Below, piece after piece: positions 3,301 to 60,430 of a stretch of 64,000 nucleotides of DNA. The translations under genes and the position numbers were made by a program. The notes beneath the pieces were generated by a model that saw only the letters and a program-made list of their open reading frames with translations, did no database searches and was not told the DNA's origin. Each line of letters opens with the position of its first letter. Within the stretch, counting starts at the first letter, position 1. Source of the DNA: an uncultured Lentisphaeraceae bacterium (lineage in GTDB: Bacteria > Verrucomicrobiota > Kiritimatiellia > RFP12 > UBA1067); contig CAZMNN010000010.1 in assembly GCA_964567665.1 (NCBI GenBank), positions 70 to 64,069 of the forward strand, read 5' to 3'.

Positions 3301-3728
3301 TGCCGGTTAGGTTCTGGCTTGCCAAGGATGGTGTCACTAACGTGATTGCAAACCTTACGCCTCCCGTCACGAACTTTACGATGTGGAGCTGGTCATTCAG
3401 GATGCCGGAGGCGGGCGTGTGGAAATTCGGCATCGAGGGGCTTGGCGAGGGCGGAATGGACCTGAACACCCTGATAGACAACGTTTCGCTTGTACACGAC
3501 CTGAACGTATCCGATGAGCCGGACATCGGTGAGGATGTGGCGATCTTCGTTGATGAAGGCGCAAGGCTGCGCCTTGACTTCGCGGGGACCGGCACGGTGA
3601 GCCGTCTGAAGATCAACGGCAGGAGCCGCTACGGTCTCGTGCGGGCTTCAGACTTCCCGGATGTCTTGAGCGGAGACGGTGCATTCTTCGTCCTTCCTCC
3701 GAAGGGTATGACGGTCATCATCAGGTGA
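369..3728 (+). CDS. Large secreted protein: signal peptide, autotransporter-associated beta-strand-like repeats, LamG/ConA-like module, CBM-like NxSFE domains, C-terminal GMTVIIR motif
   Basis: ORF 357..3728; start moved to ATG 369 giving MKTVLVALCAGFALA; KTGNGVWTL and KSGAGTLRI repeats; WFDA...EEYLMSKW module; PNASFE/PNGSFE/KNGSF repeats. Confidence 0.85.
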   Translation: MKTVLVALCAGFALAGICEDDIYVGTGEIVRREINSDAEQSGNVVVSPRGTLLKTGNGVWTLPTSKITQGWKANVAVGQGTMRIRHDAASATGGSAAIPQTLQNAAVWFDARKADSFVQDDSGRIVDWLDCRETGNATDGYALIRAHTDSSFSTLAPELKEKDGTTGLYFQGFGSGCWMNLLSAGGAQAEVLAKNVFVVQGQFEKLAPLLGVRSGYRNGNAHLAFVPGLAASGAFLPMWVNASYDVSSILAARTYIDGDEVDAFSSVAQAFPSNRFALVEVEFLEAAGGFQCFFNDRDYFGGAAGNRVGGEYICEVVAFTNALSATERLQVEEYLMSKWFGVKRPAALHVTAAAGTRVEMESAGDGAEAIPVSIGGGGDFVKVGSNGADVGIPALLEGFNGRFRLDDGVLMMRGSAPFAVVAGEQLHVDLPYGGPVMSNAVAESDSFVKSGAGTLRINALPPEVKRLRVSAGELALEAPPTVAASIPASSLIVTGCVPNASFEQGIEATTSTVNLGDGFQGWAAVAGEGSSEANLAWVNHSAYKGGKNDSSPYWKLPTEVPDGECVLAINKGASVWTTITLPQEGVYELTFKGASRIDKAGLILDLAIGESMDAATSFGSFRSIYADGRFCSFRYRLPRLGAGSHRLWFRQVDVTKDCCCLIDDLKLTRIDDTLLRREVPNGSFEQFRVSYDAFTKPMLFDSTNFDGLASWTVVQASDESANSNYGWTLASYVGSGPVVRGMGWDNRNSDKGWASQFCNVRECDDGFVQLYLTQGASAHVTFTPAAGRYFVSADIGLYRSTFDSTPHMTAHSYVKIGDADYVSLGDIDINGRFSMKRRTFPVAFTVDGQTAITLRLAASMAPTSYSYPTGHLLFDNVELAPVGEGKSEELVKNGSFTAASGWEYVNGEGLAANYTPKRLECGKVSAAYGSNWIDDYALVVIDNGLVHQDVAVPAAGWYRLSLAARTRVWFDGTPRTPLPVRFWLAKDGVTNVIANLTPPVTNFTMWSWSFRMPEAGVWKFGIEGLGEGGMDLNTLIDNVSLVHDLNVSDEPDIGEDVAIFVDEGARLRLDFAGTGTVSRLKINGRSRYGLVRASDFPDVLSGDGAFFVLPPKGMTVIIR

Positions 3729-3794
3729 GAACGTGCAAGATGAAATTCAGGTCAGCGAAAAATTGTGCGGCAAGGTGAAGGACGGGGACGGTAA

Positions 3795-6700: not shown

Positions 6701-7277
6701 GGACTTCCTCGACAACGCGGCCTTCCCGCTCGTCCATATGCACGACCGCTACTGGGAATCCGCGCCCGGCGACAGGTCGCGGAACCGAAACCCTGATCTC
6801 CAGTTCAAGGCAAAATGGTTCCGTGAGGTGAAGTGGCGTGTCTCCACGCTGAATGCCGGCGGCCCGTATGCGATGGAGCATTACGCCGTTCCCTTGCGTT
6901 TCCGCGATGTGCTTGGATTCACGAAGGGCGGATATCTCGTCGGTACGTATGGCATGGAGCCGTATCTCGTTCCGTTCGCGCAGGCGTTTCGCGCACTGCC
7001 GGCGACAGGCATGGATACGATGCCGGGTGGCGGTGAGTTTGTGCGGCTCAGGTACGTGCGCCATGATGGACGCAGCTGGTTCTATCTTGTGAACACAGGG
7101 GTTGATCCGGTGTGCGTGGAGGTGCGCTTCCCTGACGGAACGCGCAATCTGGTCACAGGTGAGCCGGTTGCCGGAAAGGCGTCCATCACGCTTGGCCCAT
7201 ACGAACTTCGCTCGTTCGGCGCGGCAGCCGGAAAGCCGGCGATTCTCGACGTCCAATCGACATCGCGGCAGATGTGA
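3795..7277 (+). CDS. Secreted glycoside hydrolase-like protein (LamG domain plus TIM-barrel GH-like domain)
   Basis: 1160-aa ORF; LamG signatures (WHHVVASWNE, FDGLIDEVKIYSAALT); Trp/Tyr-rich barrel-like C-half; start could be ATG 3810. Confidence 0.7.
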   Translation: MRSVKMQFRSVKRGFVSMFSAVCASLCLSASVHEFGPADRIEIHSEPRGYEKFVTVSQAADRVVFDCRAAFAKGMRNLVCLLPQFEDPQLAGEDMLAEVFVGSADSQAFVQPYLQMWKEIDGVRQFRVLRSRAPFLTAGNEHSMARCVFVGTCHDKSGGYRLRFDLRKPEYGSGGVFCFTRGRVARLDEVRTSVKPKTVAPELTMHLPFDGSAVATFAKGASTPLTERGVSYEPGVNGQAVRVSPKSRTVLEYAFAGNISQERGAVSMWAKRDARDAGTSGWLLSSPTPFNLRLGTGALYLWLWGQNGARLRLDTSDDCDAYVWRSVASDGDWHHVVASWNEAGGSLFVDGARCYDDVGGASLSPLEKARQPYSFSNLGKWDAAKRFFIGSRGGLDQFDGLIDEVKIYSAALTKEQAQSLYREGGRQPKPRPDYAAMSAERGRNIYETAPVGNGGDPGEMELVREVRFDRAGLASLRIPGTKFEVVGPSSMRTTADGVDYLELGGEEFHRMAVGFELAAGEPLYVFEIDYPDDAKRTMDMIVQDAFSPSYETVRMQDYEMQVGVFTGGDLPISGKIRTHRCVYWASSTNVVFEAMTARKGEPAAVSAIRLYRLKNRALPAARIVSPKPKNGWGRTIGWYYEDPSIDREFAVADNAHSPEQWMELVDKIAATMKYQGLNLFAYPGAWYSGMMDDLYNPHGHAPDFLRAFYERFDREGIGVVPLINQETHPVPSGSLTYDMIVSGDVHGTMYNVTATGKPQSGVTYVPSLFNICHPDTQRYLEGMIDRFVADGMKHPSFKGVGLHVKHSSICWLGMITSGYNDYMIDGFTRDTGIKVPVDRRDPMRGRAYAEWLMANAYEPWVQWRCRQVSGFWVKIARKLAAARPDLKLWINNIANLDPIMDRFASPDYMRRMAREGGLDREIFAKESPNVIMGQTSLPADYRFAKPGWYYQTPADYECQRSYHTKPCYWDFLDNAAFPLVHMHDRYWESAPGDRSRNRNPDLQFKAKWFREVKWRVSTLNAGGPYAMEHYAVPLRFRDVLGFTKGGYLVGTYGMEPYLVPFAQAFRALPATGMDTMPGGGEFVRLRYVRHDGRSWFYLVNTGVDPVCVEVRFPDGTRNLVTGEPVAGKASITLGPYELRSFGAAAGKPAILDVQSTSRQM

Positions 7278-7283
7278 TAGAAG

Positions 7284-7292
7284 TGGTATAAT
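7284..7292 (+). promoter_or_regulatory. Extended -10 promoter, probable leaderless transcript for the methyltransferase
   Basis: TG-g-TATAAT, 7 nt before ATG 7300. Confidence 0.6.
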
Positions 7293-7299
7293 TCATTTC

Positions 7300-8466
7300 A
7301 TGTCTTTGCGTGATAGAAGTAACATGAATGAAACCGGTTGCAGACGGCGAGTGGCGGTGTCTTTGTTTTCGGGTGCCGGCGGATTGGACATTGGCGTTCG
7401 ACAGGCAGGATTTGATGTCCTCGCGTGTGTAGAGCTTGATCAAAACGCCTGCGACACGCTACGGTACAACATAGCAAGGCAAGGAGACCGAACCAGGGTT
7501 TACGAAGGAGACATAAGGGCTTTTGATCCTGATGATATTCTTAGAGATGTGCAATCCAGCGGCGGCGACATTGATTTGCTGTTTGGCGGTCCACCATGCC
7601 AAGCGTTTTCCTTGATAGGGAAGCAGAAGGCGTTGGAAGATGAGCGCGGAACACTCCTTTTCCAGATGATTCGCTACACCGAAGCCATGAAACCTAAAGT
7701 TGTCTTGATGGAGCAGGTAAAGGGTTTGCTGTCAGCCCGTGACGCTGATGGACGGCGAGGTGGAGTGTTCGAGTCGTTGCTGGATGAATTCGACCGTCTC
7801 GGCTATACGACCAAATACAAGGTATGCCTTGCCGCAGATTATGGGGTTGCACAGCTGCGGGAACGCGTGATATTGGTTGCAACGAAATGCGGAAGCGAAT
7901 TTGAATTTCCGCCCCCGACACATTCAAAACGCATGGAAACGGGCGATTTGTTTTCCGATCCATTGCCGTCATGGTTGACGGTCGGTGAGGCGTTGCGGGG
8001 AGTGCCGTCTCCTCATCCCAGGGAAAAAGGTGTCACGACATATCCTGATGATATGCAGAACCATGTAGATGTCACTCCAGATCGTGACCGCGAGCGGATT
8101 CACCATGTGCCTGAGGGTCTTTATCTCGCGTCGCAGACGCAATTGCCGAAGGACATAGTAGGAAAACTTAACCGTAAGGACACAACGAAGTACCTTCGCC
8201 TTAACCGTGCAGGGCAATCAAACACACTTCGCTGCGGGGAGATATTCTTTCATCCTACCGAAGACCGGTACTTGACGCCTCGCGAATATATGCGCATACA
8301 CGGATATCCCGATGATTATCTGCTCAAGGGACCGATTCGTTCAAGAACGGGCAGTGTCAAAAGCCTGGATCAGCATCGGCTTGTGGCGAATTCTGTCCCA
8401 CCCCCTCTCGCCTTTGCATTTGCGAAGCAGATTTCAATGTACATGGACGGAATGGAGGCAAGGTGA
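7300..8466 (+). CDS. DNA (cytosine-5)-methyltransferase
   Basis: C5-MTase motifs: LFSGAGG (I), GGPPCQAFS (IV, catalytic Cys), MEQVKGL (VI), QLRERV (VIII), LTPREYMRIHGYPD (IX), ANSVPP (X); start ATG 7300 or 7324. Confidence 0.95.
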   Translation: MSLRDRSNMNETGCRRRVAVSLFSGAGGLDIGVRQAGFDVLACVELDQNACDTLRYNIARQGDRTRVYEGDIRAFDPDDILRDVQSSGGDIDLLFGGPPCQAFSLIGKQKALEDERGTLLFQMIRYTEAMKPKVVLMEQVKGLLSARDADGRRGGVFESLLDEFDRLGYTTKYKVCLAADYGVAQLRERVILVATKCGSEFEFPPPTHSKRMETGDLFSDPLPSWLTVGEALRGVPSPHPREKGVTTYPDDMQNHVDVTPDRDRERIHHVPEGLYLASQTQLPKDIVGKLNRKDTTKYLRLNRAGQSNTLRCGEIFFHPTEDRYLTPREYMRIHGYPDDYLLKGPIRSRTGSVKSLDQHRLVANSVPPPLAFAFAKQISMYMDGMEAR

Positions 8467-8467
8467 C

Positions 8468-9595
8468 ATGAAGAACGGCTCCAGAATTTTCGAACTGTAC
8501 GGCTATCCCGTGGATGATTGGTCAAGTGAAGCAATGGATAATTTGAGGCATTGCCGTTGCCCCTTCATGAATGAGGAGTGCGATGGTGGCGGCAACAGAT
8601 TCTCGTCCGCCGTCATTCTTTCAGAGGGGCATCCCCTCAAGAGTGTGTTCCCAGACAAGCCCTCCGTTCAGTCTGGTGTCTGCTCTCTTTTGCTGCACGA
8701 CAGTGAACAGCCGTGGATCGTCTGCCCTCGGCGTTTGCTGAACTATAGGTGCGGAGTGGAGAAGGAGCGGCAGATGGACGTCAAGCGAATGCTTTGTGAG
8801 AAATCAGGCTTGACGGAAGGGGTGCGCTATTCTGTGTGGTCTGAAGTGAAGATGAAGTGCCAGATTGTCGATGGAGGAAAGACCGGACACTTCGATTATA
8901 CATTCGATTACGTCATCACCGGGCGGACAAGGAAATCTCTCGAACAGATATGCGATATTTTTGGATGTTCTCAGTCAAAAGCCGCCAATATGCTTGCGAA
9001 AAATGGCTTTACGACTTGTCGGATGAATGGAGCATTGTACTGTGAAGATTTCCCCGCACTCCCGCTCGTGATTGTGGAGGTAATGACATCAAGCACTTCG
9101 GGCGGAAACAAGAGGGACAGAACGCAGATAGCTCAACTGTTTGAGGATACGGTATTGAAGCTCAACGGCGTCGCGACTGAACCTGCGGGGCCTGGCATAA
9201 ACTATCGGCAGGTATGGGCGCGAATGGTGAGCCAGCTGTTGGTCAAGTGTCAGATCGGCAAAGCATGGGGTGGTTCGACGTTTTGGGTTGTTCAGGATCT
9301 CCTTGCCAAATACATATCAGAAACCACGGCATTGAATTTTTCTGATTTTCTTGCGCAGCATCGTGACGAAGTCAATGTAATTTCCGGTGGATATGGTGAT
9401 GATGCCATGCCTTTGCGCCGAAAAGAAAACATAGCGGAAATACGGGATGTGAAGTTCTATTCCGGTAAAGTTGCGCCAGCATCCGATGAGAGCAAGACCT
9501 TTTCCGACATCATCAAACTTGGAGTTTTACCTCCACGCAGTGAATTGCTGAAAAAGCTGCTGCAGAAAAAGCCCTGTGCAACGTTTGTGTTTTAA
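8468..9595 (+). CDS. Type II restriction endonuclease, NotI family-like
   Basis: ATG 1 nt after the MTase stop; N-terminal IFELYGY...CPF...C...GVCSL...WIVCPRRL Cys4 pattern resembling the NotI metal-binding domain; D...VEVMTSS nuclease-like core. Confidence 0.75.
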   Translation: MKNGSRIFELYGYPVDDWSSEAMDNLRHCRCPFMNEECDGGGNRFSSAVILSEGHPLKSVFPDKPSVQSGVCSLLLHDSEQPWIVCPRRLLNYRCGVEKERQMDVKRMLCEKSGLTEGVRYSVWSEVKMKCQIVDGGKTGHFDYTFDYVITGRTRKSLEQICDIFGCSQSKAANMLAKNGFTTCRMNGALYCEDFPALPLVIVEVMTSSTSGGNKRDRTQIAQLFEDTVLKLNGVATEPAGPGINYRQVWARMVSQLLVKCQIGKAWGGSTFWVVQDLLAKYISETTALNFSDFLAQHRDEVNVISGGYGDDAMPLRRKENIAEIRDVKFYSGKVAPASDESKTFSDIIKLGVLPPRSELLKKLLQKKPCATFVF

Positions 9596-9633
9596 CGGAC
9601 AATCCGTAGTTGACGAAGGAGTGGAAAAGCGGA

Positions 9634-11967
9634 ATGAAGAGCAAATTTGTTGAAATTGTGAGGATTGTGGCGATATTAGTTGCATTGTGCATGGGTGGCT
9701 TCGCGTCAGGCGAAATGAAGCTCGCGTACGAGATTCCGACGGAAGATGCAGGTGCGAGCCTCGCCATGTTCCCGAAGCTCAAGGCGATGGGGTATGACGG
9801 TGTTCGGTCAAGGGCGTTCTGGGGCGCAGACCATGATGTGCTGTCGAAGATGCTGAAGTCAAGCGGACTTGCAGTGGCCGGGATGCCGGTCGCACTGGAA
9901 CAAATGGACGGGAAGGAAATCGAGTCCACGGTTGCGTTCTGCCGCAGGTTCGGGGTGAAACATCTGATCGTGGACGGTTTCAGGGGCGGAACGTCATCGG
10001 AATGGCGGACGTTCTGCGGACGCATCGCCGATGCGGGGCGGCGACTTGCTCCGCTTGGAATAAGGCTGGCATACGGCAACGGCATCTACGAATTCGAGGA
10101 GTGTCTGCAACGGGAGTTCCCCGCAGACATCGTCAAGGCTGACCGCGAGGTTGCCGTTGAGCTGGATGTATGCGCCGTTGCGGAGTCCGGACGCGACGCG
10201 GCGACATGGATCGCCGATCTTCGCGGACGGCTGCCTGGTGTGCGCGTGAGGCGGCGTGGGGCTGCGGCGTTCCGTGCCGGCGAAGATTCAGCTGGCTGGG
10301 TGCGGACGCTCGATGCAGCGCGTAAAGCCGGCGCGGATTGGCTTGTCGTCGGAGGCGACGGCGCAACGGCAGATGGCGCCGCTGCGGACGCCGCGTTCCT
10401 CCGGAAGATCTGGCGCGACGTGCCGCCGCCGGCGAAGAGGCCCCGCACCGTGATGAACCTTGTCAATTTCGTGCGCGGATGCGAGCCGCGCCGTCCGATG
10501 GATCTTGTAATGCCGCTTGCCGAGCAGATAAGGTGCAACAGCAGATATGGCGTGGCGAACACGATCCTGCTTCAGTACGATGCGATGATCCGCAACGACA
10601 TCATGGCGGCGGCCGCCACCGCCGACAGGACGAAGACCGAGTTTGGAGTGTGGATCGAAATCGTCAAGCCTCTTTGCGAGGCGGTCGACATTCCGTGGCG
10701 CGGACGCAACGGTTGGGCCTGGGACTGGTGGGTGAATCCCGGCTTCCTTGAGGCGTACACGCAGAAGCAGAGAGCTGCGCTGATCGATGAGCTGTTCCGT
10801 CTCTTCAAGGAGAAGTTCGGTGACTATCCTCAGAGCGTCGGATCGTGGGTCATGGATGCGTGGTCGATCGGCTACATGAAGGAACGGTACGGAATCGTCG
10901 CAGTGTGCGTGTGCAAGGAGCAGGATGTCACGGATGCGTACGGGCTTCGCGGCGGCTACTCGAACGGCGTGTACTATCCGTCGAAGAACAACATGCTCTC
11001 CGCCGCCAGCGACATGGCAAACGCAATCAAGGTGCCGGTGTTCAAGATGCTCACGCCCGATCCGATATACAACTACGGCATAAGCTACGAGTACCTTGAT
11101 TCCCGCAACGGGAAGAGACGCCGGCACGTGGTGACGCTCGAACCCGCCGCGCTCGGCAAGAATCCGTACATTGTGGACTGGTACTTCCGCACCTATACGG
11201 AACAGCGTGGTCTTCTCAACATCTCGTATATGCAGACGGGGCAGGAGAACAGCTTCGGGTGGACGCAGTTCGGGGTGAACGTAGGCTACTACAACCAGAT
11301 GGAGGAGATTGTCGACTACGCCAAACGCGGGCTTATCGAGATCGAGACGCTTGGCGACACCGGCCGCCGCTTCCTTGCCGATCATCAGGAGAACTGCGCC
11401 CAGACGCAGATTGCACTTGAGGACTGGAACGGGCAGGGCAGACGCAGCGTGTGGTACAACTGCAGGAACTATCGCGCAAACCTCTATCAGGAGGGAAACC
11501 GGTTCTACATTCGCGACATCCACAAGATGTGCGACGGCTTTGCCGAAGATCATCTCACGACGGCGAGCACAAACTGGAACGAAGTCCTGTATACGCCGCC
11601 GGTAGTTGATGCGTACATGTTCCATTCCGAAAATGCACCGGGCATGATTTCGTTCACCGGTGAGGCCGTAGGGATGATGCCACGCACCACAGGCGAGAAC
11701 GAGATTGAAGTGACCTGCTTCTATGCGGACGGCACGACCACGCTCGTCCGTTTCGACGAGAAGGGGCTTACGGTGTTCGGAATGCCGCTTGAAATCAAGA
11801 TGAACGGCGAATGGCGCGGGCGGCACGAATTCGCGCCCGGACGCATCAACCTGACGTTCAAGGATTTCCGCTATGCTGTCGGCTGCGAGGGCCGTCTTTC
11901 CCCGACAGATTCCGGCTACCGGATCGAACCTGTGAAGGGGCGGATTCGTTTCGACCTTTCGCTTTGA
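9634..11967 (+). CDS. Secreted fusion: degenerate sugar-phosphate isomerase/epimerase TIM barrel plus GH-like hypothetical domain
   Basis: Signal peptide MKSKFVEIVRIVAILVALCMGGFASG; AMGYDGV...LAYGNG...VELD pattern; second domain starts VMNLVNFVRGCEPR. Confidence 0.6.
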   Translation: MKSKFVEIVRIVAILVALCMGGFASGEMKLAYEIPTEDAGASLAMFPKLKAMGYDGVRSRAFWGADHDVLSKMLKSSGLAVAGMPVALEQMDGKEIESTVAFCRRFGVKHLIVDGFRGGTSSEWRTFCGRIADAGRRLAPLGIRLAYGNGIYEFEECLQREFPADIVKADREVAVELDVCAVAESGRDAATWIADLRGRLPGVRVRRRGAAAFRAGEDSAGWVRTLDAARKAGADWLVVGGDGATADGAAADAAFLRKIWRDVPPPAKRPRTVMNLVNFVRGCEPRRPMDLVMPLAEQIRCNSRYGVANTILLQYDAMIRNDIMAAAATADRTKTEFGVWIEIVKPLCEAVDIPWRGRNGWAWDWWVNPGFLEAYTQKQRAALIDELFRLFKEKFGDYPQSVGSWVMDAWSIGYMKERYGIVAVCVCKEQDVTDAYGLRGGYSNGVYYPSKNNMLSAASDMANAIKVPVFKMLTPDPIYNYGISYEYLDSRNGKRRRHVVTLEPAALGKNPYIVDWYFRTYTEQRGLLNISYMQTGQENSFGWTQFGVNVGYYNQMEEIVDYAKRGLIEIETLGDTGRRFLADHQENCAQTQIALEDWNGQGRRSVWYNCRNYRANLYQEGNRFYIRDIHKMCDGFAEDHLTTASTNWNEVLYTPPVVDAYMFHSENAPGMISFTGEAVGMMPRTTGENEIEVTCFYADGTTTLVRFDEKGLTVFGMPLEIKMNGEWRGRHEFAPGRINLTFKDFRYAVGCEGRLSPTDSGYRIEPVKGRIRFDLSL

Positions 11968-11981
11968 CGGAGAGAGACATC

Positions 11982-21362: not shown

Positions 21363-21436
21363 GGCGATGGAGGCGCACTGGAATTCAATGCCGCCGCTTC
21401 GCGGGTCTGTGAGTTCGTGAGGCGGCGAACTGCTCC

Positions 21437-30144: not shown

Positions 30145-33100
30145 ATGTTTTGCAGAACGCATATGCTTACGGTAGCGTGGACGGTTGCTGTTGCAGGCCT
30201 GTTCGCCAAAACCAACGAGGTCGGCGACGCATGGGCGCTTCAGCTTTCGAACGGAGATGTAGCCGCAGCCGTCTCGACATCGATTCCAGAAATCCTTCCC
30301 GATGTAGGAACTCCGATATTCCATCTTGACGCATCGCAGACGAATGAATGGACGATCGACGGGGGCATGGTTAGCCGAATACCGTCTCTCGTCGGCAGTC
30401 GCTACCTCGTTTCGGGTGAGGGCAAATACATCCATGAGCTGTCGAAGCGGGATGAGGCCAATGGATTGTGGGACGCAAGCGATTATTGGCAGCTCAAACT
30501 GCCGCAGGTTGCGCATGATGAGGACATTTACGCCGCAGTGCTTGACTTTGGGGCGCTTGGATCGCGCATGGCGATGCTGTTCGACTACGAGAACGACCTT
30601 GATTCCGGCATGAGCCAGCCGACAAACGTCCTTCGCGGAATCGGCACGGTCGTTGCCGTGTGGCGGCAGACCGGAGGTGCGATCCTTGGCGGAGGGGTGG
30701 GATTGAATGGTGGCGGAGACTGCAACGGCCAGATGTGGGTGCGCGGAACATCGATGAATTGCGAGAGCGAGACGATTGCATCGCTGCGGACAACGAACCC
30801 CGACTGCTCATCGCCGCTTCTGTGGTGTCCGGGATCGCCCACTGGCGGCTACAACAACATGGCGTTCAATCCGGCCTTGAACGGCATATCGCGGGAAAAC
30901 GGCATCCCCGCCAACACTTGGCTCACAGGGCGGACGGCGGATTGGACAGTTACCTCGCTTCTGCCCACAAACAACCTTGGAAACTCAAACGGATTGGGGC
31001 TTGGCATTGTGCGACAGAACGAATCGAAGCTTTCAGGCGGCCTGAAAATCGCCGAGATGGTCATTTATGGCGAGACGCTTGACGTGTTCAGGGTGAAGCA
31101 GGTTGAGGATTACCTCGCGAAGAAATGGCTTGGACGCAGCAGATACGGCACAGACGGCAGGTCTCGAATGCTGTCGGTTGCCGGACATTCAAAGGAGAAG
31201 TCCCGCAACGGTGTCAGGACGGAGATAAACGTGCCGGATGGCGCGTCGCTTGAACTGGGGGAATATGCCGGCGGACGCGGAACAGGCGTCTCTATCGATA
31301 AGACCGGCAACGGCGTACTGTCGGTTTCGGATCTCCGCAACTACCCCGGAAGGCTGGCGATAAAGGAGGGAACGTTGCGCTTCGGCGGACGCCACGCCGC
31401 CACGGCGATACCGGTTGCGCCGTTTCTCCACTTCGACGTCTCCGAAAGCAATTCCGTGACCACGGAGACGATAGATGGCGTAAAGTATGTGAAAAGGATG
31501 GCCAACATTGCCGAATCGTCGTATCGCGGAGAGCGCATATCGGCAAAGGCGGGCGAGAGTCCAAATCCGCCGCCTGTCCTCGTGGAAGGTGTTTTCACCG
31601 CCGCAGACGGCTCTCAGATGTCCGCCGTCAATTTGCTTGAAGACAGAAGGTTCGGCACATCCGCCGAAACGTCGGGAGCATACTTCCGGTTCGTCAATTC
31701 AAAGGACGAGGGCCTAAGCATAGACGGATTGACCACGGTGATAGCAGTGGTGAGTCCGGGAGCGAAAGGCGGTACACTCCTCGGAAACGTCCGTTCATGC
31801 GCGGCAGACCCGTCGGCGACGTATTCCACGGGATGCTATTTTGACCGCGATCAGGACACCATAGCATCGTGGAGTTCATATGCCGCTCCGCTTCTCGGCA
31901 CGAAACCGTTCGCCAGAATACACCCGACGCTTGTGCCGACGAACGGCATCGTGATGATAGACGGCGTGAAGAGGGATGTCCGCGCCGGATATGACAGACA
32001 GGGCTTTCAGGTGGTGGCGCTTCAGGTTCCGGGATCGTGCGTATCCTCAATCGGAGCCTCGTTCAATTCGGCATACGCCGGAGGATTCATGTTTTCGGAA
32101 ATCGCAATATACAGCCATCCGCTGTCTGAAGAGGAGTTGCGCGACGTTTCCGCATACATGAGCGCGAAGTGGCTTGGGTGCTCCATTCCGGGATATCTTT
32201 CCGCTTCCGGCATGGCGTCGCCGCCGATCGTGCAGGATCTGCTGCTTGAGGACGGAACCACCGTGGACGTTCCGTCTGGCATGGTCGCCCGCGTGAGGCT
32301 TGCGGACTTTTCGACTTCGTTCACGAAGACGGGCGGCGGTTCGCTTCAGATCGAGAATCCTTCCAACATAGCGCTTGTCGGCGCCAAACTGCGGGAAGGC
32401 ACAATCGACTTCATCGCTCCGCTCGACCATGACGCCGAAAGCGGCTACGCCGTCTCTCCGTCGCTCCATCTCGATGCGGATGAAACGAACCGCATGGATT
32501 TCGCCTCTGACGGCAAGACGGTAAAGGCGTGGTATGACATCCACCGGCGCGACGGAGTGTCCGCATTTGCCAACGTCGGCTATCCCGCTCTCATCGCGGC
32601 GGCCTGCACCAACAGGCAGAGGAAGATACACAACGCCGTCACGTTCGGCGGATTCCGGTCCGGTGCGCGCGCCGAACTGCTGCGTCCGCTCCACGGAGTG
32701 CGTTCGGCATACATTGTCGCCGCAAGGGGCGCCGCCAATGCCCATATAGGCGCATTGCTCGGGACGGCCTCCGCTTTCTGCAACGGAAGCGGCAGCCCGG
32801 ACGAGGATGTCGTAGACTTTTTCTACGGGACCGACAGCAACGGGTGGCCGAGCAGTCCGTTTTCCCCGGTGCCGTCGAAAGGCGCGACCGTAAGGTACAA
32901 CTGCGGCGAGACGCTGTACTTCACGAACGGCGTGTCTGTCTCGGCGGCGCAGAACGTATTGCCGCCGACGGACGAGTTCGACTACCGTCTGTATGAAGTG
33001 CATCTTCCTGTCGGTGCGCACGTCTCTGCGCTTTGCGGCATCGGAACGAGCCCGAACTACAGCGGCGGATGGAGATACGGTGAGATACTTCTTTACGAGC

Positions 33101-34617
33101 GCGAACTGAGCGAACGCGAGAAGGTCGCGACGCGCAACCATCTCGCAAGGAAATGGCTTGGCGTCGCGGATGAGGGGCTTTCGCCGCTTCCGGAACCCGC
33201 GCCGCAGCCGGATCAGTGCGTATTGGCAAACCTTGACGTGGAGGACGGTGCGTCGATGAGCGTGCAGGAGGGAAGAACGCTCACGTATGGACAGATTGTC
33301 GGCACAGGCGATTTCGCAAAGGTCGGGGGCGGCACTCTTGCGGTGAACGACATCGTCGGATTTACCGGCACCGTATCTGTTGCGGAGGGCGCTTTCAGGA
33401 TTTGCCATGCTCTGCCGCCGGAGGAGCCTGCGATGCCGGATGCCTCCAAGGGGCTTGCAGTCCATCTTGACGCCTCACGCGCTGATACGATGTCCATCTG
33501 CGAAAGCAACGGCACGATGTACGTCAACGAATGGAGAAGCCTCACGGGGAACGGCATGAGGGCGGTGCCTCGCGGCGGAGACGGAAAGACAATGCTGGTC
33601 TCCCATGCGGATCTCAGGAATTCCATGGATGCCGTCAAGATGCCGGACAACGAATCGTCGATGGTCTTCAAGGATGCCGAAGGGAACCGGTTTTCCGTCA
33701 CGAACGTGTTGAGCGTCCTGTGGGTGCTTGGTTCGCATGATGGCGGCGGCACGATTCTCGGCAACGAATTTGCGAATCCGAAGAGCGGGAGCGCAAACGG
33801 ATGGTTCCGTGGGGCGCAGACATACGGCATCCGGCCGGAGGACTTCCTCATCTACAGCGGTGCGTGCGCCGGGGTGCGTACGGCGGAGTTCTGCATAAAC
33901 GACAGGCGACTTTCGGCAGGTACGCAGCTTTGGCCGGAAGGAGTGACGGACGCAACTCCGCTCAATACGGGATTGTCCGGCGGCTGGGATTTCATCAGCT
34001 GTCGCGTCCATGAGGGAACGTACGCGAATGCCGTAAGTGCGGATTCGCTCGCCTACAACTCCACTGCATCAGGTGCGCGTTCCGGTCATCAGCGCCTTGC
34101 CGAGATTCTCATATACACAAACATGCTTACGGCGGCGGAGTGCCGTCGTGCCGGATATGCCATGCGGGCGAAGTGGGGGCTTGAAAGGTGGCAGCGTTCC
34201 ATGTCGAATGCGGTGCACATGGTGGTTGGCGCAGATGCGGCGCTTGATCTGGGCGGCACCAACCAGTACCTGAACGCCATAGGTGGCGCCGGCCGGATAG
34301 TGAACGGCAACCTTTCGGTAAGCGGCATGGACTGCGATTTCGCCTCCACGGGCTGTTTGGAGATGGAAGGGACTCTGACCGTGGGCGATGGGTTCACCCT
34401 GAACCTCATGAACGTGGACGCGGTTCTCGGCGGATTCGCGGATCTGACGATACCGCTTATCCGTGCATCGATGGTGGTTGGAGCAGAGAACCTTTCACGC
34501 TTTACGGTGAAGGGCGAGGAGCTTCCGAAGTACGTGAGAGTCCGTCTGCGGGCAGGGAAGAATGGCGAGGTGGTCGCCCGCTTCTTCGGGACAGGGCTTA
34601 AGATACACGTCTTTTAA
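30145..34617 (+). CDS. Giant secreted protein with four LamG/ConA-like modules and beta-strand repeats; C-terminal GLKIHVF
   Basis: AGGAG SD, ATG 30145; four H[LF]D...KW modules joined by K[TV]G[NG]G.L repeats. Confidence 0.85.
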   Translation: MFCRTHMLTVAWTVAVAGLFAKTNEVGDAWALQLSNGDVAAAVSTSIPEILPDVGTPIFHLDASQTNEWTIDGGMVSRIPSLVGSRYLVSGEGKYIHELSKRDEANGLWDASDYWQLKLPQVAHDEDIYAAVLDFGALGSRMAMLFDYENDLDSGMSQPTNVLRGIGTVVAVWRQTGGAILGGGVGLNGGGDCNGQMWVRGTSMNCESETIASLRTTNPDCSSPLLWCPGSPTGGYNNMAFNPALNGISRENGIPANTWLTGRTADWTVTSLLPTNNLGNSNGLGLGIVRQNESKLSGGLKIAEMVIYGETLDVFRVKQVEDYLAKKWLGRSRYGTDGRSRMLSVAGHSKEKSRNGVRTEINVPDGASLELGEYAGGRGTGVSIDKTGNGVLSVSDLRNYPGRLAIKEGTLRFGGRHAATAIPVAPFLHFDVSESNSVTTETIDGVKYVKRMANIAESSYRGERISAKAGESPNPPPVLVEGVFTAADGSQMSAVNLLEDRRFGTSAETSGAYFRFVNSKDEGLSIDGLTTVIAVVSPGAKGGTLLGNVRSCAADPSATYSTGCYFDRDQDTIASWSSYAAPLLGTKPFARIHPTLVPTNGIVMIDGVKRDVRAGYDRQGFQVVALQVPGSCVSSIGASFNSAYAGGFMFSEIAIYSHPLSEEELRDVSAYMSAKWLGCSIPGYLSASGMASPPIVQDLLLEDGTTVDVPSGMVARVRLADFSTSFTKTGGGSLQIENPSNIALVGAKLREGTIDFIAPLDHDAESGYAVSPSLHLDADETNRMDFASDGKTVKAWYDIHRRDGVSAFANVGYPALIAAACTNRQRKIHNAVTFGGFRSGARAELLRPLHGVRSAYIVAARGAANAHIGALLGTASAFCNGSGSPDEDVVDFFYGTDSNGWPSSPFSPVPSKGATVRYNCGETLYFTNGVSVSAAQNVLPPTDEFDYRLYEVHLPVGAHVSALCGIGTSPNYSGGWRYGEILLYERELSEREKVATRNHLARKWLGVADEGLSPLPEPAPQPDQCVLANLDVEDGASMSVQEGRTLTYGQIVGTGDFAKVGGGTLAVNDIVGFTGTVSVAEGAFRICHALPPEEPAMPDASKGLAVHLDASRADTMSICESNGTMYVNEWRSLTGNGMRAVPRGGDGKTMLVSHADLRNSMDAVKMPDNESSMVFKDAEGNRFSVTNVLSVLWVLGSHDGGGTILGNEFANPKSGSANGWFRGAQTYGIRPEDFLIYSGACAGVRTAEFCINDRRLSAGTQLWPEGVTDATPLNTGLSGGWDFISCRVHEGTYANAVSADSLAYNSTASGARSGHQRLAEILIYTNMLTAAECRRAGYAMRAKWGLERWQRSMSNAVHMVVGADAALDLGGTNQYLNAIGGAGRIVNGNLSVSGMDCDFASTGCLEMEGTLTVGDGFTLNLMNVDAVLGGFADLTIPLIRASMVVGAENLSRFTVKGEELPKYVRVRLRAGKNGEVVARFFGTGLKIHVF

Positions 34618-49845: not shown

Positions 49846-52800
49846 ATGGATTCAAGAAAATGGCTGTCTGCGGCGGTGTTGGCTTTGGCGGCCGCTGCCG
49901 TCTATGCGTACGACGCCGAGTTTATTTCGCCAACAGGCTACTTTGTGCCCGGCTGGCAACTGGGGCGCTGGAAGGACATGGCAACTGGCACGACGCCGTC
50001 CGCGCTTCCCACGAGCCGCGTCGACAACGTGCATTTCGGCGAGCCGTCCAATTCGGCCTGGCAGCCATCGGTCTACACGGGAACGGGCAATGACTTCGGA
50101 AGTTTCCTTCCGGTTGAACTGAATGTGCTTCACGGCAGCGAGGCGTGGACGCTCGTGAATTCGCCGGAGCAGACGTCGGTGACGGCGCAAGGTTCCGACA
50201 AGCGCGTGACGATTGCGGATCCGACGGGATTTGACGGCTATTTCTTCAATGGATATGCACGTGTAGGGTGGAGTTTCCCCGGAAACGCCGGGGCGACGCA
50301 GCGCGTCTCGTCCGTTTCGCTGCGATGCCGCCCAATCGTCGAGACGCCGTCACAAGGGACATCAGTTGCCGTCGACGACTTCTACTCCGCCGGTGCCTTG
50401 GAGAAGTGGGGCGCGGGCGAACTTGTGGTCAACGGCACGTCCGGTGCGCATACGCGCCTGTACGTAAAGGACGGCGACGTGTCGTTTGGGGATGGAATTG
50501 CCGACGACCTGGACGAAATCCTCGATGCCGCGTTTCTGCATCTCGATGCAACGGCAGCCGCAACCTTGAAGACGACCTCAAACGGAGACGGGCGAACGTA
50601 TGTCACAAACTGGTGCGACGTGCGCGGCAACGGGCAGGGTGCGCATGTGCCGTTGCCGTCCGAGATGGTTTCCGGGTACGAGAAGATCCAGTCCGCGAAC
50701 AGTCCGTTTCTTGCCGTCGGCGCGGGACGAAAAGGACAGAACATGATCGACTTCGGGACGGCTTGGACGCCGGACAGCGGAACGCGATTCGGCCCGACGA
50801 ACTGCACGATGCGCTTTGAACGCCGTGAGGACGTGCGCGACGTGTTCTATGTGGCGCGCTACCACGACAGGCCGCAGTTCAACCCCGTGCTGGGCGACTG
50901 GGTCTCCGCGCCGACGCTGCAGCCGTGCGCCGGACTGCTCGGCGGCAGCGCCAACTGGGGCGCACGAACTGGTGCGATCTTCGCCGACGGCGTGAAGGTC
51001 TTGCCGAACCACTACCCGGACAGCGGCTACGGATTCACGAACCAGACCGTGTACTCGTTCAGCTCGAAGTCCAACCTCGTCCTTTCGGCAATCGCGTCCG
51101 ACCAGGATCGGCCGTTTGCTGGAACGCTGCCCGACGCAGCGCAGGCGCGGATCGGGGGAATGCTTGTCGGCGAGATCCTGCTGTTCACGAATGAACTGAC
51201 GCGGGCGCAGCGCAACCGCGTCAACGCCTACCTCGTCGACAAGTGGCAGGGTCCGTCCGGCGAGGTGTGGGCGGATGTCGGCTTACTTGACATCCAGAAG
51301 GACGGGGCGTCCGTCAATGTGGCGCCGGGCACAACGGCGACCGTGCTCGACCTCAAGTCCGGCGGCGTCGTGACAAAGACCGGCGGCGGAACGCTTGCGG
51401 TCGATGCCGTCTATCCGCAGGACACGACTTTTGACGTCAAGGGTGGCAGTGTGCGGATCGGCGGACTGGTTTCGTCCGTGGACGACCAGGCGCCGGCATC
51501 CAGTCCGGCGGTCTGGTTAGATGCTTCGTGTTCAGGATCGCTGGTGAAGGAGACGATCGACGGAAGCCCGTACGTGACCCGATGGAACGACAGGCGCGGA
51601 AACGGAATCTACGCCACGGCCTCGGTTGAAAAGGGCGCACCGCGCATTCCGACGGAAGTCAAGGCGGCGACGCCGACGGGGCTTGACGTGCTTTCTCTTG
51701 GCGGAAACTCGTCGACGAGTTCATATTTTGCGTTCCCGTGGCGGAGTGCATCGAACGGGACAAAGAAATTCTACGCCGGCTTTGCGGTTCTTCGCCGCAC
51801 GGCGGGGAGCGACACGGCGTTCGGAATCTTCGGCGCGGCCGACATGACGTTCATGTGCGAGGGCAGCGAGGGCGGCACTCATCACCGCTTCATCTCCGAG
51901 AAGTACACCTGCTCCGCGACGTCGGCGGCAATCTGGACGTATAATGGTGTTCCCCGCGATCCGATTGTCTATCACGCCGATATGTCCGACATGTCAAACT
52001 TCTTTGTCGTGGCGTTCGCCGCCGAAGAGAAGGTGCTGGTTGACGCGATCGCCTGGAACCGCAACAGCCCGAACTACTGCGGCGGGATGGAGATCGGCGA
52101 GTTCATCCTGTACGACCGGCCGGTTTCGGATGCGGAACGCCGCTGCACGGAAGCGTACCTGATGAAAAAGTGGAATGGCGCGGCCCATCCCGCATCGGGG
52201 ACGCCCAAGCCGAACTACGCATTTTCCGAAGACGTCGACGCCATTGTTGACGTGGCGGACAACTGTGCGCTCGGCACGGTGTCCGGCGGTTCGGGACGCT
52301 TCGTCAAGCGCGGGTCCGGAAATGTCTCGCTCTCTGCGGTTCCAGACGGGACGGAGTCGCTTTCCGTGGAGGGCGGGACGCTTTCACTGTCGCTGTCTTC
52401 ATTCATCGATGACTCGCTCTACCACTTTGACATGACCGCCGAAGACACGTTGGAATACGGCGAATCGCCTGATCAGGGAACTGTCGTAATGCGTTGGAAT
52501 GACGTGCGCGGCAATGGTGTCTATGCCGAGGCGGTTAAGCCGGGAGATGCGGCGGACAAGGGCTACACGAAGAAGTATCCCGTTGTCACCGAACTTTCAA
52601 CCGAAGGCGTTGTTAGGAGATACCTTGATTTTGGTGGCGTCAACAGTGCCAATTCGGCCGCAATGTGGATGAACCGGAATTTCATGAACGTGCGCGAAGT
52701 CCATGTGATTCACAGGGACATCGGAAAGAACTCCATGTTTGCATCCTTCTCCGAGCGCAACACCAATGCTGTGCACAGTACATGGGAGGATAGTCAGCGT

Positions 52801-53553
52801 TGGGCGGATTATTACCGGGACACGTCCGGTTCGTTCTGCGGGTCGGCGGCCTCCGGGTCTGTGAAGAATGGCGCATTCTGGTCGAACGGGCAGCCGGTGG
52901 CGAATCCGTTGACAGATATGCTTCCCACATCGCCTTCCCTCGTTTCCATTGCGACAACGAACAATACGCACGTCAATTCCATACAGGAAGACCGCGGAGT
53001 GCCGGGTGGCGCCTACGTCGGCGAGCAGATCGCGTTCAGCCGTCTGCTCACGGACAGGGAGCGCGGCTATTTGATGGCGCACATGATGCACAAGTGGTTC
53101 GATGCCGGAGTTGCGCCGGTGTGGACAAACCTAACCGTGACCGCGCTGCACATTGCGTCGGGCGCGTCGTTGGACGTCTCCGGAAGCAACGTTGTCGTGT
53201 CCGCCGCAGAGCTTGGCGGCGCCGGAACGCTAACCGGTGCAAGCGTGATCGGCGTCTCGTCCATGCGGTTTGACGTCAATGATTTCGGCAAGTCCCATTT
53301 GACCGTTTCCGGCAGTGTCCGCTTTGCCGGTGATGTGGCCGTCACGCTGGCGAACGCCGAGGCGGACGGGATGCTTGTCCCCGGCGATTATGTGCTGTTT
53401 GAGGCGTTGGGCGGCATTGAACCTGCCAATGCCGTGAACTTTGCGATTGAAGCGCCGGTGCTTTCCGGCAGACGCACGTACACCTTCATTCGCAGGGGCG
53501 GAACTCTGACCCTGCGGATTGCGCAGCGCGGGCTGCGCATCACAGTCCGTTAA
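49846..53553 (+). CDS. Giant secreted protein with three LamG/ConA-like modules and beta-strand repeats; C-terminal GLRITVR
   Basis: Signal peptide MDSRKWLSAAVLALAAAAVYA; HLDA/WLDA/HFDM...KW modules; KWGAGEL, KTGGGTL, KRGSGNV linkers. Confidence 0.85.
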   Translation: MDSRKWLSAAVLALAAAAVYAYDAEFISPTGYFVPGWQLGRWKDMATGTTPSALPTSRVDNVHFGEPSNSAWQPSVYTGTGNDFGSFLPVELNVLHGSEAWTLVNSPEQTSVTAQGSDKRVTIADPTGFDGYFFNGYARVGWSFPGNAGATQRVSSVSLRCRPIVETPSQGTSVAVDDFYSAGALEKWGAGELVVNGTSGAHTRLYVKDGDVSFGDGIADDLDEILDAAFLHLDATAAATLKTTSNGDGRTYVTNWCDVRGNGQGAHVPLPSEMVSGYEKIQSANSPFLAVGAGRKGQNMIDFGTAWTPDSGTRFGPTNCTMRFERREDVRDVFYVARYHDRPQFNPVLGDWVSAPTLQPCAGLLGGSANWGARTGAIFADGVKVLPNHYPDSGYGFTNQTVYSFSSKSNLVLSAIASDQDRPFAGTLPDAAQARIGGMLVGEILLFTNELTRAQRNRVNAYLVDKWQGPSGEVWADVGLLDIQKDGASVNVAPGTTATVLDLKSGGVVTKTGGGTLAVDAVYPQDTTFDVKGGSVRIGGLVSSVDDQAPASSPAVWLDASCSGSLVKETIDGSPYVTRWNDRRGNGIYATASVEKGAPRIPTEVKAATPTGLDVLSLGGNSSTSSYFAFPWRSASNGTKKFYAGFAVLRRTAGSDTAFGIFGAADMTFMCEGSEGGTHHRFISEKYTCSATSAAIWTYNGVPRDPIVYHADMSDMSNFFVVAFAAEEKVLVDAIAWNRNSPNYCGGMEIGEFILYDRPVSDAERRCTEAYLMKKWNGAAHPASGTPKPNYAFSEDVDAIVDVADNCALGTVSGGSGRFVKRGSGNVSLSAVPDGTESLSVEGGTLSLSLSSFIDDSLYHFDMTAEDTLEYGESPDQGTVVMRWNDVRGNGVYAEAVKPGDAADKGYTKKYPVVTELSTEGVVRRYLDFGGVNSANSAAMWMNRNFMNVREVHVIHRDIGKNSMFASFSERNTNAVHSTWEDSQRWADYYRDTSGSFCGSAASGSVKNGAFWSNGQPVANPLTDMLPTSPSLVSIATTNNTHVNSIQEDRGVPGGAYVGEQIAFSRLLTDRERGYLMAHMMHKWFDAGVAPVWTNLTVTALHIASGASLDVSGSNVVVSAAELGGAGTLTGASVIGVSSMRFDVNDFGKSHLTVSGSVRFAGDVAVTLANAEADGMLVPGDYVLFEALGGIEPANAVNFAIEAPVLSGRRTYTFIRRGGTLTLRIAQRGLRITVR

Positions 53554-58074: not shown

Positions 58075-58146
58075 ATCTCTCTGTTGCGAGATGTGGTTCG
58101 TTTCGTCCGTTGGACGTTGGCGATGAAATCTGAAAGGAGAAGACTC

Positions 58147-60430
58147 ATGGTTGACGCTTGGAGTGCTGTTTCAGAAGGGATTTTTAGGAAAAAAAAAATC
58201 ACTTTGTGCATCTGTCGCGTGTGTTCTGGCGGGCGGCATCTTTCTGACCGCCGACGCTGAGGACTGGAAGATCGATTCGGTGGACGATCTCACGGCGGCG
58301 CTTTCGCAAGCGGCTTCGGGTGATGTCCTGCTGCTGAATCCGGGGGTCTATGATCTCGCCGGAACGGAAATGGATGAAGAGGGGCATTCGCATCTTGTTG
58401 TGGATAGGCCTATAGAGATGCGCTGCACGGACGGCTTGTCCTGGCGCACGGCATCAGATGGCCTTTCGGGCGCAGTTCTGAAGGGCGGCAGTTCGATGCG
58501 CATTCTGCGTGTCAAGACGGCAGCATCATTCAGTGGCATATCCTTTGTGGACGGAAAGACGTCAGATGACGGCGCCGGCGTATGGATAGATGTCAGCGGC
58601 ACCAGCGACGTGGTCAACTTCACGAATTGCGTGTTCAAGGCCTGCCGCAGTGAAAATGGAGATGGTGGAGGCATCTGTTCGCCTTATTCTGCGACGGCCG
58701 TTGCTCGTGATTGCCGGTTTGAAGGCAACGAGGCGCAGAAGAACGGTGGCGGCGCAATGAAGGGGTTCTATTACTCCTGCGTCTTCTCCAACAACGTGGC
58801 TGTGGCTGCCGGGGGCGGGGCGGTTTCAAGCGGGGAGATGACGGATTGCGTGTGCGGCGGCAACAAGGCGAAGTGGGGCGGCGCAGGGAGCTACGTAACG
58901 GCATCCCGCTGCACCTTCACCGGAAACAGCAGCGGCATTGTCGGTGGAGCGATGTCCAATTCTCACGCAACCGATTGCGCATTTGACGCAAACGTCTCCG
59001 ATGACAAGGGGGGCGCTCTTTACAGCGATGGACTGTATAAGGTGCGTGGATGCACGTTTGCTCAAAACCGCGCGAGGACGAACGGCGGTGCGATATGTGG
59101 TGGACACGCAGTGAGCAATTGCTCGTTCTACGGCAATTCCGCCGCGAATGGCGGTGCGTTGTACGGTGTGCGGACAGCATCGTCTCTATTGGCGGTGCAG
59201 CCGGTTGCGGTGATGGATTCCAGTTTCCTCACAAACACCGTGTCCGGAAGCGGCGGCGCAGTCGCAGAGTGTGACGTTGCATCCTGCCTGTTTGAGGGCA
59301 ATGAAGCGGATAAAGGCGGAGCAGTCACGCAGTCCACGCTTGTGGACTGCGAACTGATTGGCAACAAGGCGAACACCTATGGCGGCGCCGCCTATGAAGT
59401 GGAGACTTGCCGGGATTGCACTTTTGCAGGCAATTCTGTAGTCAGATATGATGGAGGCGCAATCTACCAGACCAAGGCGGGTGCAATCCTTTCCGGATGT
59501 GAGATTGCGAGCAACAAGGTGGTTGGTGCATATCGAAACGGTGGCGGCATATTTTGCACAGCCGGAGGCAGTTCCATGCTCGTCACGAACTGCCTCATCA
59601 TGGCGAACAGTGCGGAGGGGACATCCTCCGCAGGTGGCGTATATGGGGCGACGAATGTAGTCGGCTGCATCTTCCGCGACAACACAAGCGGCTTCTATTC
59701 GGGTCACGCATGGTACTCCGCCTTTCGCGACTGCCGATTCACCGGAAAGGGCGAGGTCGCGATGAGCCGCCTCTACAACTGTGAACTTTACGGCTATCGT
59801 GCGAACAAAGATGACTATTCTGCGCCGCTTGTCGCCAACGAGAGGGAAGAATGGCGGAAGGAGAGTGGATTTCCGGTATTTGAGGCGGTGAATTGCCTTT
59901 TCCGGGATTTGTCCTGCGATGCCATAGTCCGAGTGACCGGTGACGAGGCATACTTCTACAACTGCACGTTCGCCAGCAACGTGTGCGAGAATTCGTTCCG
60001 TCTTCTGCAGGGGAACAATGCAAAGGAGCCGTCGCTGAACGTGGCCAATTGCGTGTTTGGCGGCAACCGCGCAAAAGATGGCGCAGCTGCGGGCGTAAAG
60101 GTCAGCATCGGGTTCACTCCGGTTGCGGCGGATGTGTCGCTCAGTAACGTTCTTTCGGAGGGATACGATCTGCCGTCTTCAATCGGCGCTTCGCAGACAT
60201 CCGGACTTTTGACCGGAGCCGTTCGATTCTGCGGTGATGACAACTTCTGGAACGAACCTGCCTATGCGCTTCGTCCATCTGGGCGGTGGGTGGATCGGGG
60301 CGTGGCCCTGCCATGGTCGGCGGATGCGGTCGATCTCGCAGGACGTCCGCGTGTGCGCGGTAAAGGCGTAGATCTCGGCTGCTATGAGTTTCAGTCCATG
60401 CTGCCAGGCATGAAGATATCCATTCGTTGA
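58147..60430 (+). CDS. Secreted beta-helix protein with GGA[IVL] (Pmp-like) repeats, choice-of-anchor-Q-like tail and C-terminal GMKISIR; start possibly frameshifted at A10 (58189-58198)
   Basis: Many N.A..GGA[IVLM] repeats; DLAGRPRVRGKGVDLGCYE; AGGAG SD 7 nt before ATG 58147, which is in frame only with A9; in-frame TTG 58151 is an alternative. Confidence 0.8.

Follow-up and report, generated by a model that had tools for sequence, protein, structure and literature searches.

Why four large exported proteins with dissimilar bodies should end in nearly the same seven residues is the question raised by a stretch of 64,000 nucleotides (the window) from an uncultured Lentisphaeraceae bacterium (contig CAZMNN010000010.1 of GenBank assembly GCA_964567665.1, positions 70 to 64,069 of the forward strand). 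The four genes, here termed A–D (Table 1), end in GMTVIIR, GLKIHVF, GLRITVR and GMKISIR, respectively, which on reading the sequence proved to be exactly the ends given in a preliminary description of this DNA, where they had been put forward as a candidate sorting signal. From their homologues, structure models and genomic neighbourhoods we conclude that, in gut Kiritimatiellae, exported proteins of the sugar-binding and beta-helix types share a seven-residue end, probably an export or anchoring tag not described before.

The shared end and its conservation

The Pmp-like beta-helix proposed earlier for gene D is borne out by Pfam matches to Beta_helix and Chlam_PMP, and its fold is PL6-like. 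Towards its end (residues 706–748) the protein scores below the cutoff of 25 bits against the choice-of-anchor Q model NF041518 (16.8 bits, E = 0.006), and a member of the P0105 cluster bears the NCBI name 'choice-of-anchor Q domain-containing protein [Kiritimatiellia bacterium]'; following DLGCYEF, a linker of six residues (QSMLP and the residue preceding the Gly) leads into the tail. The label 'LamG-like', given earlier to other bodies, received no confirmation from Pfam for A, B or C, and the AlphaFold2 (AF2) model of A resembles tandem CBM22/CBM51, SGBP-B and Cry C-terminal domains in Foldseek comparisons, that is, tandem carbohydrate-binding module (CBM)/jelly-roll domains. The start of gene C at position 49846 was adopted from homologue P0001. 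As for the Phe that terminates B, we regard it as a variant because the B-like homologue P0012 (1495 aa, with a PF12951 match) ends in GGMILVR.

Within the window the pattern G..[VILM].[VILM][RHKF]$ matches four of 165 open reading frames (ORFs; at least 100 aa, six frames), and these are A, B, C and D only. By chance ∼0.2 matches would be expected among the 165 ORFs, or ∼0.07 among the ∼50 real genes, giving a Poisson probability of roughly 1 × 10−4 to 1 × 10−6 for the four observed. Across 440 kb of related loci (234 genes) the motif stands at the C-terminus of 25 genes and occurs at internal positions at a rate of 1.3 × 10−3, an 81-fold terminal enrichment that becomes 522-fold with a stricter pattern. 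The tail is selected at the level of protein and not of DNA: all six Arg codons are used at position −1 and all four Gly codons at −7, each of the three stop codons occurs after tails, and the DNA downstream is unrelated from one gene to another.

Homologues retain the tail over long distances. It is present in all 12 homologues of C at 24–96 % identity (e.g. GLMLIVR, GAVMIIR, GTVILMR and GLAVIIR), a family in which G1238 is invariant and R1244 at least 90 % conserved, and in every one of the 21 homologues of A, the most distant at 23 % identity. For D, about 33 among the 120 beta-helix homologues listed end in '..vDiGCYEC.lP..GTmvvfR'. The metagenome scan for this family used a query alignment of 10 sequences. 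In a set of 46 tail-bearing loci, every member of the two largest clusters carries the tail (27/27 and 17/17). A profile made from the C-terminal 68 residues of A-family proteins returned 905 clusters (50 % identity) among 1.84 billion representatives, with the match lying flush with the C-terminus in 146 of 148 newly returned best matches.

In order to describe the tail across the lineage, we aligned 96 distinct examples, in which positions −7, −4, −2 and −1 are fixed by the pattern used to collect them; ∼80–90 % of the members of the family sets fit that pattern, whilst in the others S, A, C or P stands at −7, or Q, E or N at −1. Reading towards the C-terminus, the alignment shows hydrophobic residues at −13 to −11 (57–79 %), a Pro-rich pair at −10 and −9, K, R or P at −8, G at −7, T, L or M at −6, a hydrophobic residue in 67 % at −5, L, I or V at −4, a hydrophobic residue in 76 % at −3, V, F, I or L at −2 and finally R (81/96), K (9) or H (5) at −1, with Asp or Glu found within the last six residues of two tails only. 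The lineage-wide consensus, G-[TLM]-h-h-h-h-R (h, hydrophobic), is thus a contiguous hydrophobic run capped by Arg, and the amphipathic, alternating beta-strand of the preliminary description has to be given up; the four tails of the window represent the polar end of the lineage's range.

Two further ends of interest were met. The surface protein encoded at 23749–26205, of the BspA-type leucine-rich repeat (LRR) plus He_PIG kind, ends in ...GGVRFVAE, in which −7 is Gly and both −4 and −3 are hydrophobic, whilst −2 is Ala and −1 is Glu; the end recalls rare E-terminal variants of the A and D families (GTMIRVE, GLVIIVE) and, judged by its letters, may be a degenerate fifth tail. In 'Verrucomicrobia bacterium ADurb.Bin070' (L021:6100–6260) a frameshift, probably an assembly error of this metagenome-assembled genome (MAG), splits a tail gene just upstream of the tail, leaving ...VDGTLLMVR* in another frame, a case in which gene callers can miss tails.

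A modular end on exported proteins

At least six unrelated types of body carry the tail, comprising Pmp/beta-helix proteins, tandem CBM/jelly-roll proteins, PA14 plus autotransporter-associated repeat (PATR) proteins, PL4-CBM-like proteins, malectin proteins and small proteins of 132 and 195 aa, the last of which show that it is not confined to giant proteins, as had been supposed. The PATR family PF12951 was matched in P0012 and L017:2248–8802, and weak PATR similarity exists in A and B. Of the 127 full-length carriers, 121 have an N-terminal, signal-like hydrophobic h-region and the remaining six look like mis-started gene calls; in the loci examined no housekeeping gene bears the tail. An enrichment on signal-peptide proteins, named in the preliminary description as one of two points on which a sorting role would stand or fall, is therefore present.

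The position of the tail relative to the preceding fold was viewed in AF2 models of A and D built with family alignments. The model of D has a mean pLDDT of 87, falling to 48 over the last 10 residues, which are coil; that of A has a mean of 79.6, and its last block, again coil, drops to 57 directly after blocks at 91–93. As modelled, then, the tail is unpacked against the preceding domain in both proteins.

The same separation is visible among relatives. In 45 of 63 distinct proteins, exactly 13 residues (six of linker and seven of tail) follow D.G[CAT][YF][EQS], the motif with which the choice-of-anchor-Q-type module ends; some relatives stop within 1–4 residues of it, and one runs into a dockerin-like segment. 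For the A-type end module, two relatives have a different domain of 150 aa in place of the tail, and in tail-less relatives the preceding domain is intact. On a contig of 44 % GC (L091), two adjacent beta-helix genes (7372–9504 and 9521–11347) read on after DMGxYEF as VPEP-LGIWIIGLLVTRCIM-KKRRSV, which is a PEP-CTERM signal, and this pair, a natural 'anchor swap', serves as a clean control for the tail of Kiritimatiellae. As the end has a fixed 13 residues here, and a PEP-CTERM or another domain elsewhere, the tail fills the slot taken by known anchors in other lineages.

Homologues of the beta-helix and PATR proteins in other Verrucomicrobiota (one named Limisphaerales) carry another conserved C-terminal domain of ∼60–150 aa. 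It ends in '...GP.FYRVGVQQ' or '...LFGRLQVEK', often after DPDGDG..N..E, and was seen in P0024, P0026, P0032–34, P0048, P0050–51, P0077, P0110, P0112–113, P0129–130, P0258 and P0277. From these sequences it may be a further lineage-specific terminal module.

Known sorting signals and the candidate functions of the tail

Searches of Pfam and NCBIfam (release of June 2026) at E-values up to 10, with A–D as whole proteins or as their last 31–60 aa, returned no sorting-domain model other than a weak choice_anch_Q match. The earlier statement that none of the four proteins has an autotransporter barrel or a PEP-CTERM, LPXTG or type IX secretion system (T9SS) tail is thereby upheld, and in neither database does the tail coincide with a sorting domain already described. 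Nor is it described in the literature that we searched on sorting, secretion and C-termini in Kiritimatiellae, or in that on choice-of-anchor domains.

The PEP-CTERM signal (TIGR02595; PMC1569441) resembles the tail in being strictly C-terminal, in marking many surface-type proteins that one lineage exports through Sec, whatever their bodies, and in its site after the choice-of-anchor-Q motif ('..MGAYEF-VPEP-LGIWIIGLLVTRCIM-KKRRSV' in L091 vs '..IGCYEC-WLPSV-GTRVVFR' in Kiritimatiellae). More loosely, both have a Pro-containing linker, a hydrophobic run and a basic end. However, the tail has no PEP motif, five or six hydrophobic residues in place of a transmembrane helix of ∼20, and one Arg instead of a basic cluster. 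It is too short to span the inner membrane, so that intramembrane processing of the exosortase type is implausible; TIGR02595 was not matched, and a PEP-CTERM-like end pattern was found in 0 of 234 lineage genes.

With the C-terminal domain (CTD) of the T9SS, in particular the attached type B CTD anchored on a PorP-like barrel (PMC9143113, PMC4804311), the tail shares the character of a signal for export or anchoring, set at the C-terminus of glycan-degrading and adhesin-type cargo in a saccharolytic lineage, and type B offers a model for non-covalent anchoring on an outer-membrane barrel. The T9SS CTD, however, is a folded beta-sandwich of 70–100 aa restricted to Bacteroidota and the Fibrobacteres–Chlorobi–Bacteroidetes (FCB) group, whereas the tail is seven unstructured residues (13 with the linker). 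We found no TIGR04183 or PF18962 match, the final 9–10 residues are coil in the AF2 models, and no PorP-like gene adjoins; a true T9SS CTD is present on the distant homologue P0128 only. A remnant of such a CTD was likewise rejected, there being no model match and a GxY motif that lies ∼50 aa from the end and not 15–20.

Other known systems fit no better. There is no PF03797 barrel of a classical (type Va) autotransporter, the proteins ending seven residues past the last passenger-type module. LPXTG, GlyGly-CTERM, MYXO-CTERM and other tripartite sortase-type signals gave no NCBIfam match, and no segment of transmembrane length is present. Type I secretion is at odds with the N-terminal h-region of most carriers, and Pfam detected no RTX domains. 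A canonical PDZ ligand of the DegS, Prc or GspC type was also rejected, since 95 of 96 tails end in R, K or H and not in a hydrophobic residue. GTMVIIR further bears some resemblance to the TonB box, D/E-T-x-V-V-T-A.

Two further systems were compared with the tail. In the two-partner secretion (TPS) of the HMW1 adhesin, a short C-terminal peptide of a beta-helix adhesin tethers it in the TpsB translocator. The likeness lies in a beta-helix adhesin being held non-covalently at an Omp85-family pore by a short C-terminal peptide; the difference is that HMW1 is exported by means of an N-terminal TPS domain and its C-terminal loop is disulphide-bonded, and neither a TPS domain nor an adjacent TpsB gene was seen for the tail carriers. 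The beta-signal of outer-membrane proteins (OMPs), polar-x-G-x-x-[aromatic/hydrophobic]-x-[aromatic/hydrophobic], is read by BamA, whose gate touches seven residues of the substrate (PMC10945584). Like the tail, it is terminal, comprises seven to eight residues and has Gly followed by hydrophobic residues at +3 and +5. The tail, in contrast, has one extra C-terminal residue, basic in ∼94 %, as well as hydrophobic residues at the in-between positions, and possesses neither a terminal aromatic residue nor a preceding barrel. It can be fitted to the beta-signal with an offset of one residue only (G at −7, hydrophobic at −4 and −2; R or K at the end in 90/96), which places it outside that class and leaves room for a similar mode of action.

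An even chance is what we would give to the reading that the tail, as it appears from sequences and models, serves sorting or retention as a modular C-terminal tag specific to the lineage of Kiritimatiellae, within the Planctomycetes–Verrucomicrobia–Chlamydiae (PVC) group, and is captured by a partner in the envelope. The tag has the form [hydrophobic strand]-[Pro/basic linker]-Gly-(T/L/M)-h-h-h-h-Arg-COOH and, if its putative function is correct, would be a new C-terminal sorting signal, unusual in being ultrashort and in having no transmembrane segment. Appended to Sec-exported carbohydrate-binding, PATR-type and beta-helix proteins of glycan-degradation operons, it would stay free after Sec export and cleavage of the signal peptide, and would then be captured as an added beta-strand (beta-augmentation) by the envelope partner, a step that would either send the protein over the outer membrane or retain it there. 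With less assurance, an Omp85/BamA-family lateral gate or another outer-membrane barrel would be the preferred partner; it is our first choice because the tail copies the beta-signal pattern and because several carriers contain PATR repeats, which elsewhere belong to autotransporter passengers. The bolder claim, that this is the first short, linear C-terminal signal for outer-membrane translocation or retention of barrel-less Sec-exported proteins, read through beta-augmentation by an Omp85-type or type II secretion system (T2SS) component, we hold only tentatively and consider rather doubtful.

Several points weigh against a captured sorting tag. All-against-all clustering of 351 genes from the 46 loci revealed no recurrent receptor, barrel, protease or sortase beside the tail genes: the recurrent neighbours are glycoside hydrolases, an AraC-like regulator and the like, and the neighbours of outer-membrane type are TonB-dependent receptors or GH127. 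The window's contig, extended by 10 kb on either side, contained restriction-modification genes and more hydrolases and no machinery gene. As such, of the dedicated secretion or anchoring tag originally proposed, the modular, exported C-terminal tag stands, whilst the 46 loci offered no candidate for its machinery. Furthermore, our census covered loci picked through tail-bearing homologues rather than whole proteomes, and disorder in an AF2 monomer does not prove the tail to be a ligand. The beta-signal likeness is that of a degenerate pattern, taken with a one-residue offset and no terminal aromatic, and real OMPs of the lineage end in Phe (...LSYEF, ...CRFKF). Lastly, the cultured relative K. 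glycovorans, a diderm, has Sec, Tat and T2SS as its sole annotated export routes, the type II system being the only one across the outer membrane (PMC5148204).

Given this annotation, the main rival is a link to type II secretion, in which a T2SS component would read the tail as a linear signal that targets folded periplasmic intermediates or the tail would retain T2SS-exported proteins at the surface. We think it unlikely, notwithstanding that the cargo is large, multi-domain and probably pre-folded, and that the T2SS is known to put certain enzymes and adhesins on the surface (PMC12802150). In the loci examined no T2SS gene lies near a tail gene. Substrate specificity depends in part on the PDZ domain of GspC/OutC, and free C-termini are bound by PDZ domains through beta-augmentation, but their canonical ligands end in a hydrophobic residue whereas 84–94 % of tails end in Arg or Lys. 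We also know of no linear T2SS signal in any organism, which again counts against such a role.

A structural or self-associating element, that is, a terminal strand that completes the sheet of a neighbour (donor-strand exchange, oligomerisation) or caps the last domain with no part in sorting, seems to us decidedly improbable. Type V pili of Bacteroidota polymerise via C-terminal strands, and the hydrophobic strand at −13 to −11, followed by the Pro-rich turn, would make a hairpin sterically possible. Nevertheless, the same seven residues stand at a fixed distance from the C-terminus behind at least six unrelated folds, they are unpacked in both AF2 models despite a confident preceding strand, and the domain before them is intact in relatives that do not have them.

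Still less probable, in our judgement, is a tag for processing or quality control, by which a periplasmic C-terminal (tail-specific/PDZ) protease or a carboxypeptidase would mature the protein or destroy copies that are not exported. Tail-specific proteases do read non-polar C-termini, and the tail presents a free and mostly non-polar one with a single basic end residue; that residue, however, is not the small non-polar one favoured by Prc/Tsp, a degradation tag is unlikely to be kept on one functional class across 905 clusters, and no protease gene is associated with the 46 loci. Overall, the modularity of the tail and its basic end fit less well with a structural, oligomerisation or proteolytic-tag role. 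Finally, for all that the motif is short and degenerate, we give practically no credence to chance, to an ORF-calling artefact or to a conserved DNA or RNA element (a terminator or coupling site) overlapping the last codons, since four matches, each on a signal-peptide protein, stand against 0.07–0.2 expected, the tail is kept across families to 23 % identity, and the full range of synonymous and stop codons is used ahead of unrelated downstream DNA.

Genomic setting of the tail genes

Kiritimatiellae, abundant in guts, rumens, digesters and sediments, break down complex and sulfated glycans there, and the tail genes sit inside glycan-degradation operons (Table 1). In these loci, logic of the T9SS, PEP-CTERM or SusD-type lipoprotein kind was not evident. 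Related tail loci contain GH28, GH78, GH97 and melibiase genes. The secreted GH78, GH95 and GH123 enzymes adjacent to the tail genes in the window are themselves devoid of the tail. The window has ∼60 % GC with nearly all of its genes on the + strand, and the sequencing runs that contain it are gut metagenomes and one metatranscriptome. The MAGs that contain orthologous loci bear the label Kiritimatiellae or Kiritimatiellaeota, or in a few cases 'Lentisphaeraceae' or 'Verrucomicrobia', and were obtained from human (Hadza), sheep, goat and horse guts and from digesters.

Table 1. Tail genes, their tails and neighbouring glycan-related genes in the window
Feature	Position	Strand	Description
Gene A	369..3728	+	1119-aa exported protein; several jelly-roll/CBM-like domains; weak PATR match (TIGR02601); ends ...GDGAFFVLPPK-GMTVIIR
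Tail of A, GMTVIIR	3705..3725	+	TGA stop at 3726–3728
GH78 rhamnosidase	11811–14690
TonB-dependent receptor + TonB	19365–22267
GH42-like gene	26433–30059
Gene B	30145..34617	+	∼1490-aa exported protein; repeated '..AE[IL]LIY..L...E...YL..KW' modules; weak PATR match; ends ...EVVARFFGT-GLKIHVF (Phe-terminal variant)
Tail of B, GLKIHVF	34594..34614	+	followed by TAA stop
GH95	34739–39256
Gene C	49846..53553	+	∼1235-aa exported protein; ends ...GGTLTLRIAQR-GLRITVR
Tail of C, GLRITVR	53530..53550	+	followed by TAA stop
GH123	55975–57543
Gene D	58151..60430	+	right-handed beta-helix with Pmp repeats (Pfam Beta_helix, Chlam_PMP); choice-of-anchor-Q-like end DLGCYEF
Tail of D, GMKISIR	60407..60427	+	followed by TGA stop

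Between the glycan genes lies a GC-poor patch (7102–9595; GC 0.51 vs ∼0.60) with a C-5 cytosine DNA methylase (PF00145) and a 427-aa ORF, and immediately upstream of the start of the window's contig (L110:4839–7020) a second methylase adjoins an RE_HindVP restriction enzyme and RadC; these patches are probably restriction-modification islands. A tRNA-Thr (TGT) gene occupies 39310–39384. The ORF for an FAD-oxidoreductase/golvesin-C protein, called from 39324, reads through it and must therefore start further downstream.

The preliminary description had placed all four tail genes in units bearing poly-A tracts. Tracts of A9–10 do exist, but they are not specific to tail genes, as one also precedes the LRR gene at 23749–26205. 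Those at 139–147, 303–312, 23638–23647 and 49724–49732 are intergenic and promoter-like ('TTGA-A10-TGGATATGCT'), stand before gene A, the LRR gene and gene C, and could tune promoter spacing. Within gene D, an A10 tract (58189–58198) falls in the region coding for the signal peptide, so that the ATG at 58147 (MVDAWSAVSEGIFRKKK...) and the body are in different frames. Six runs have A10 here (X1, X4, X8, X12, X19 and the metatranscriptome X13), whereas in the 99 %-identical P0013 and in the contigs of runs X14 and X18 the tract is one A shorter and the reading is in frame; because the runs differ in this way, the sequences suggest that a surface protein may be subject to slipped-strand phase variation or to transcriptional slippage. 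A comparable tract, likewise inside a signal-peptide coding region, lies upstream of the GH42-like ORF, where ATG ACC TTC AGA followed by A10 (26372–26392) is out of frame in four of the four runs compared; a tract of A9 would give the gene that starts at 26372 the sequence MTFRKKNAFAAVVIAVVSCGVFAAEGERPQN, a signal of lipoprotein type with the lipobox VSCG, read on without a break into the ORF at 26433–30059.

If a captured sorting tag is the correct account of the tail, the Kiritimatiellae would possess either a 'barrel-less beta-signal' or a T2SS signal that is truly linear and, with it, a surface-display pathway of their own for glycan-capture proteins. Such a tag would possibly be the first outer-membrane sorting signal of a linear type, distinct from folded domains and from tripartite sortase signals alike, and would offer a very small tag for surface display. 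Should its partner be a T2SS or Omp85 component, the substrate choice of such machines would become testable with a peptide. For the lineage itself, the seven residues would provide a sequence rule for predicting the surface proteome of Kiritimatiellae and a handle for finding the machinery, by phylogenetic profiling or peptide pull-down.

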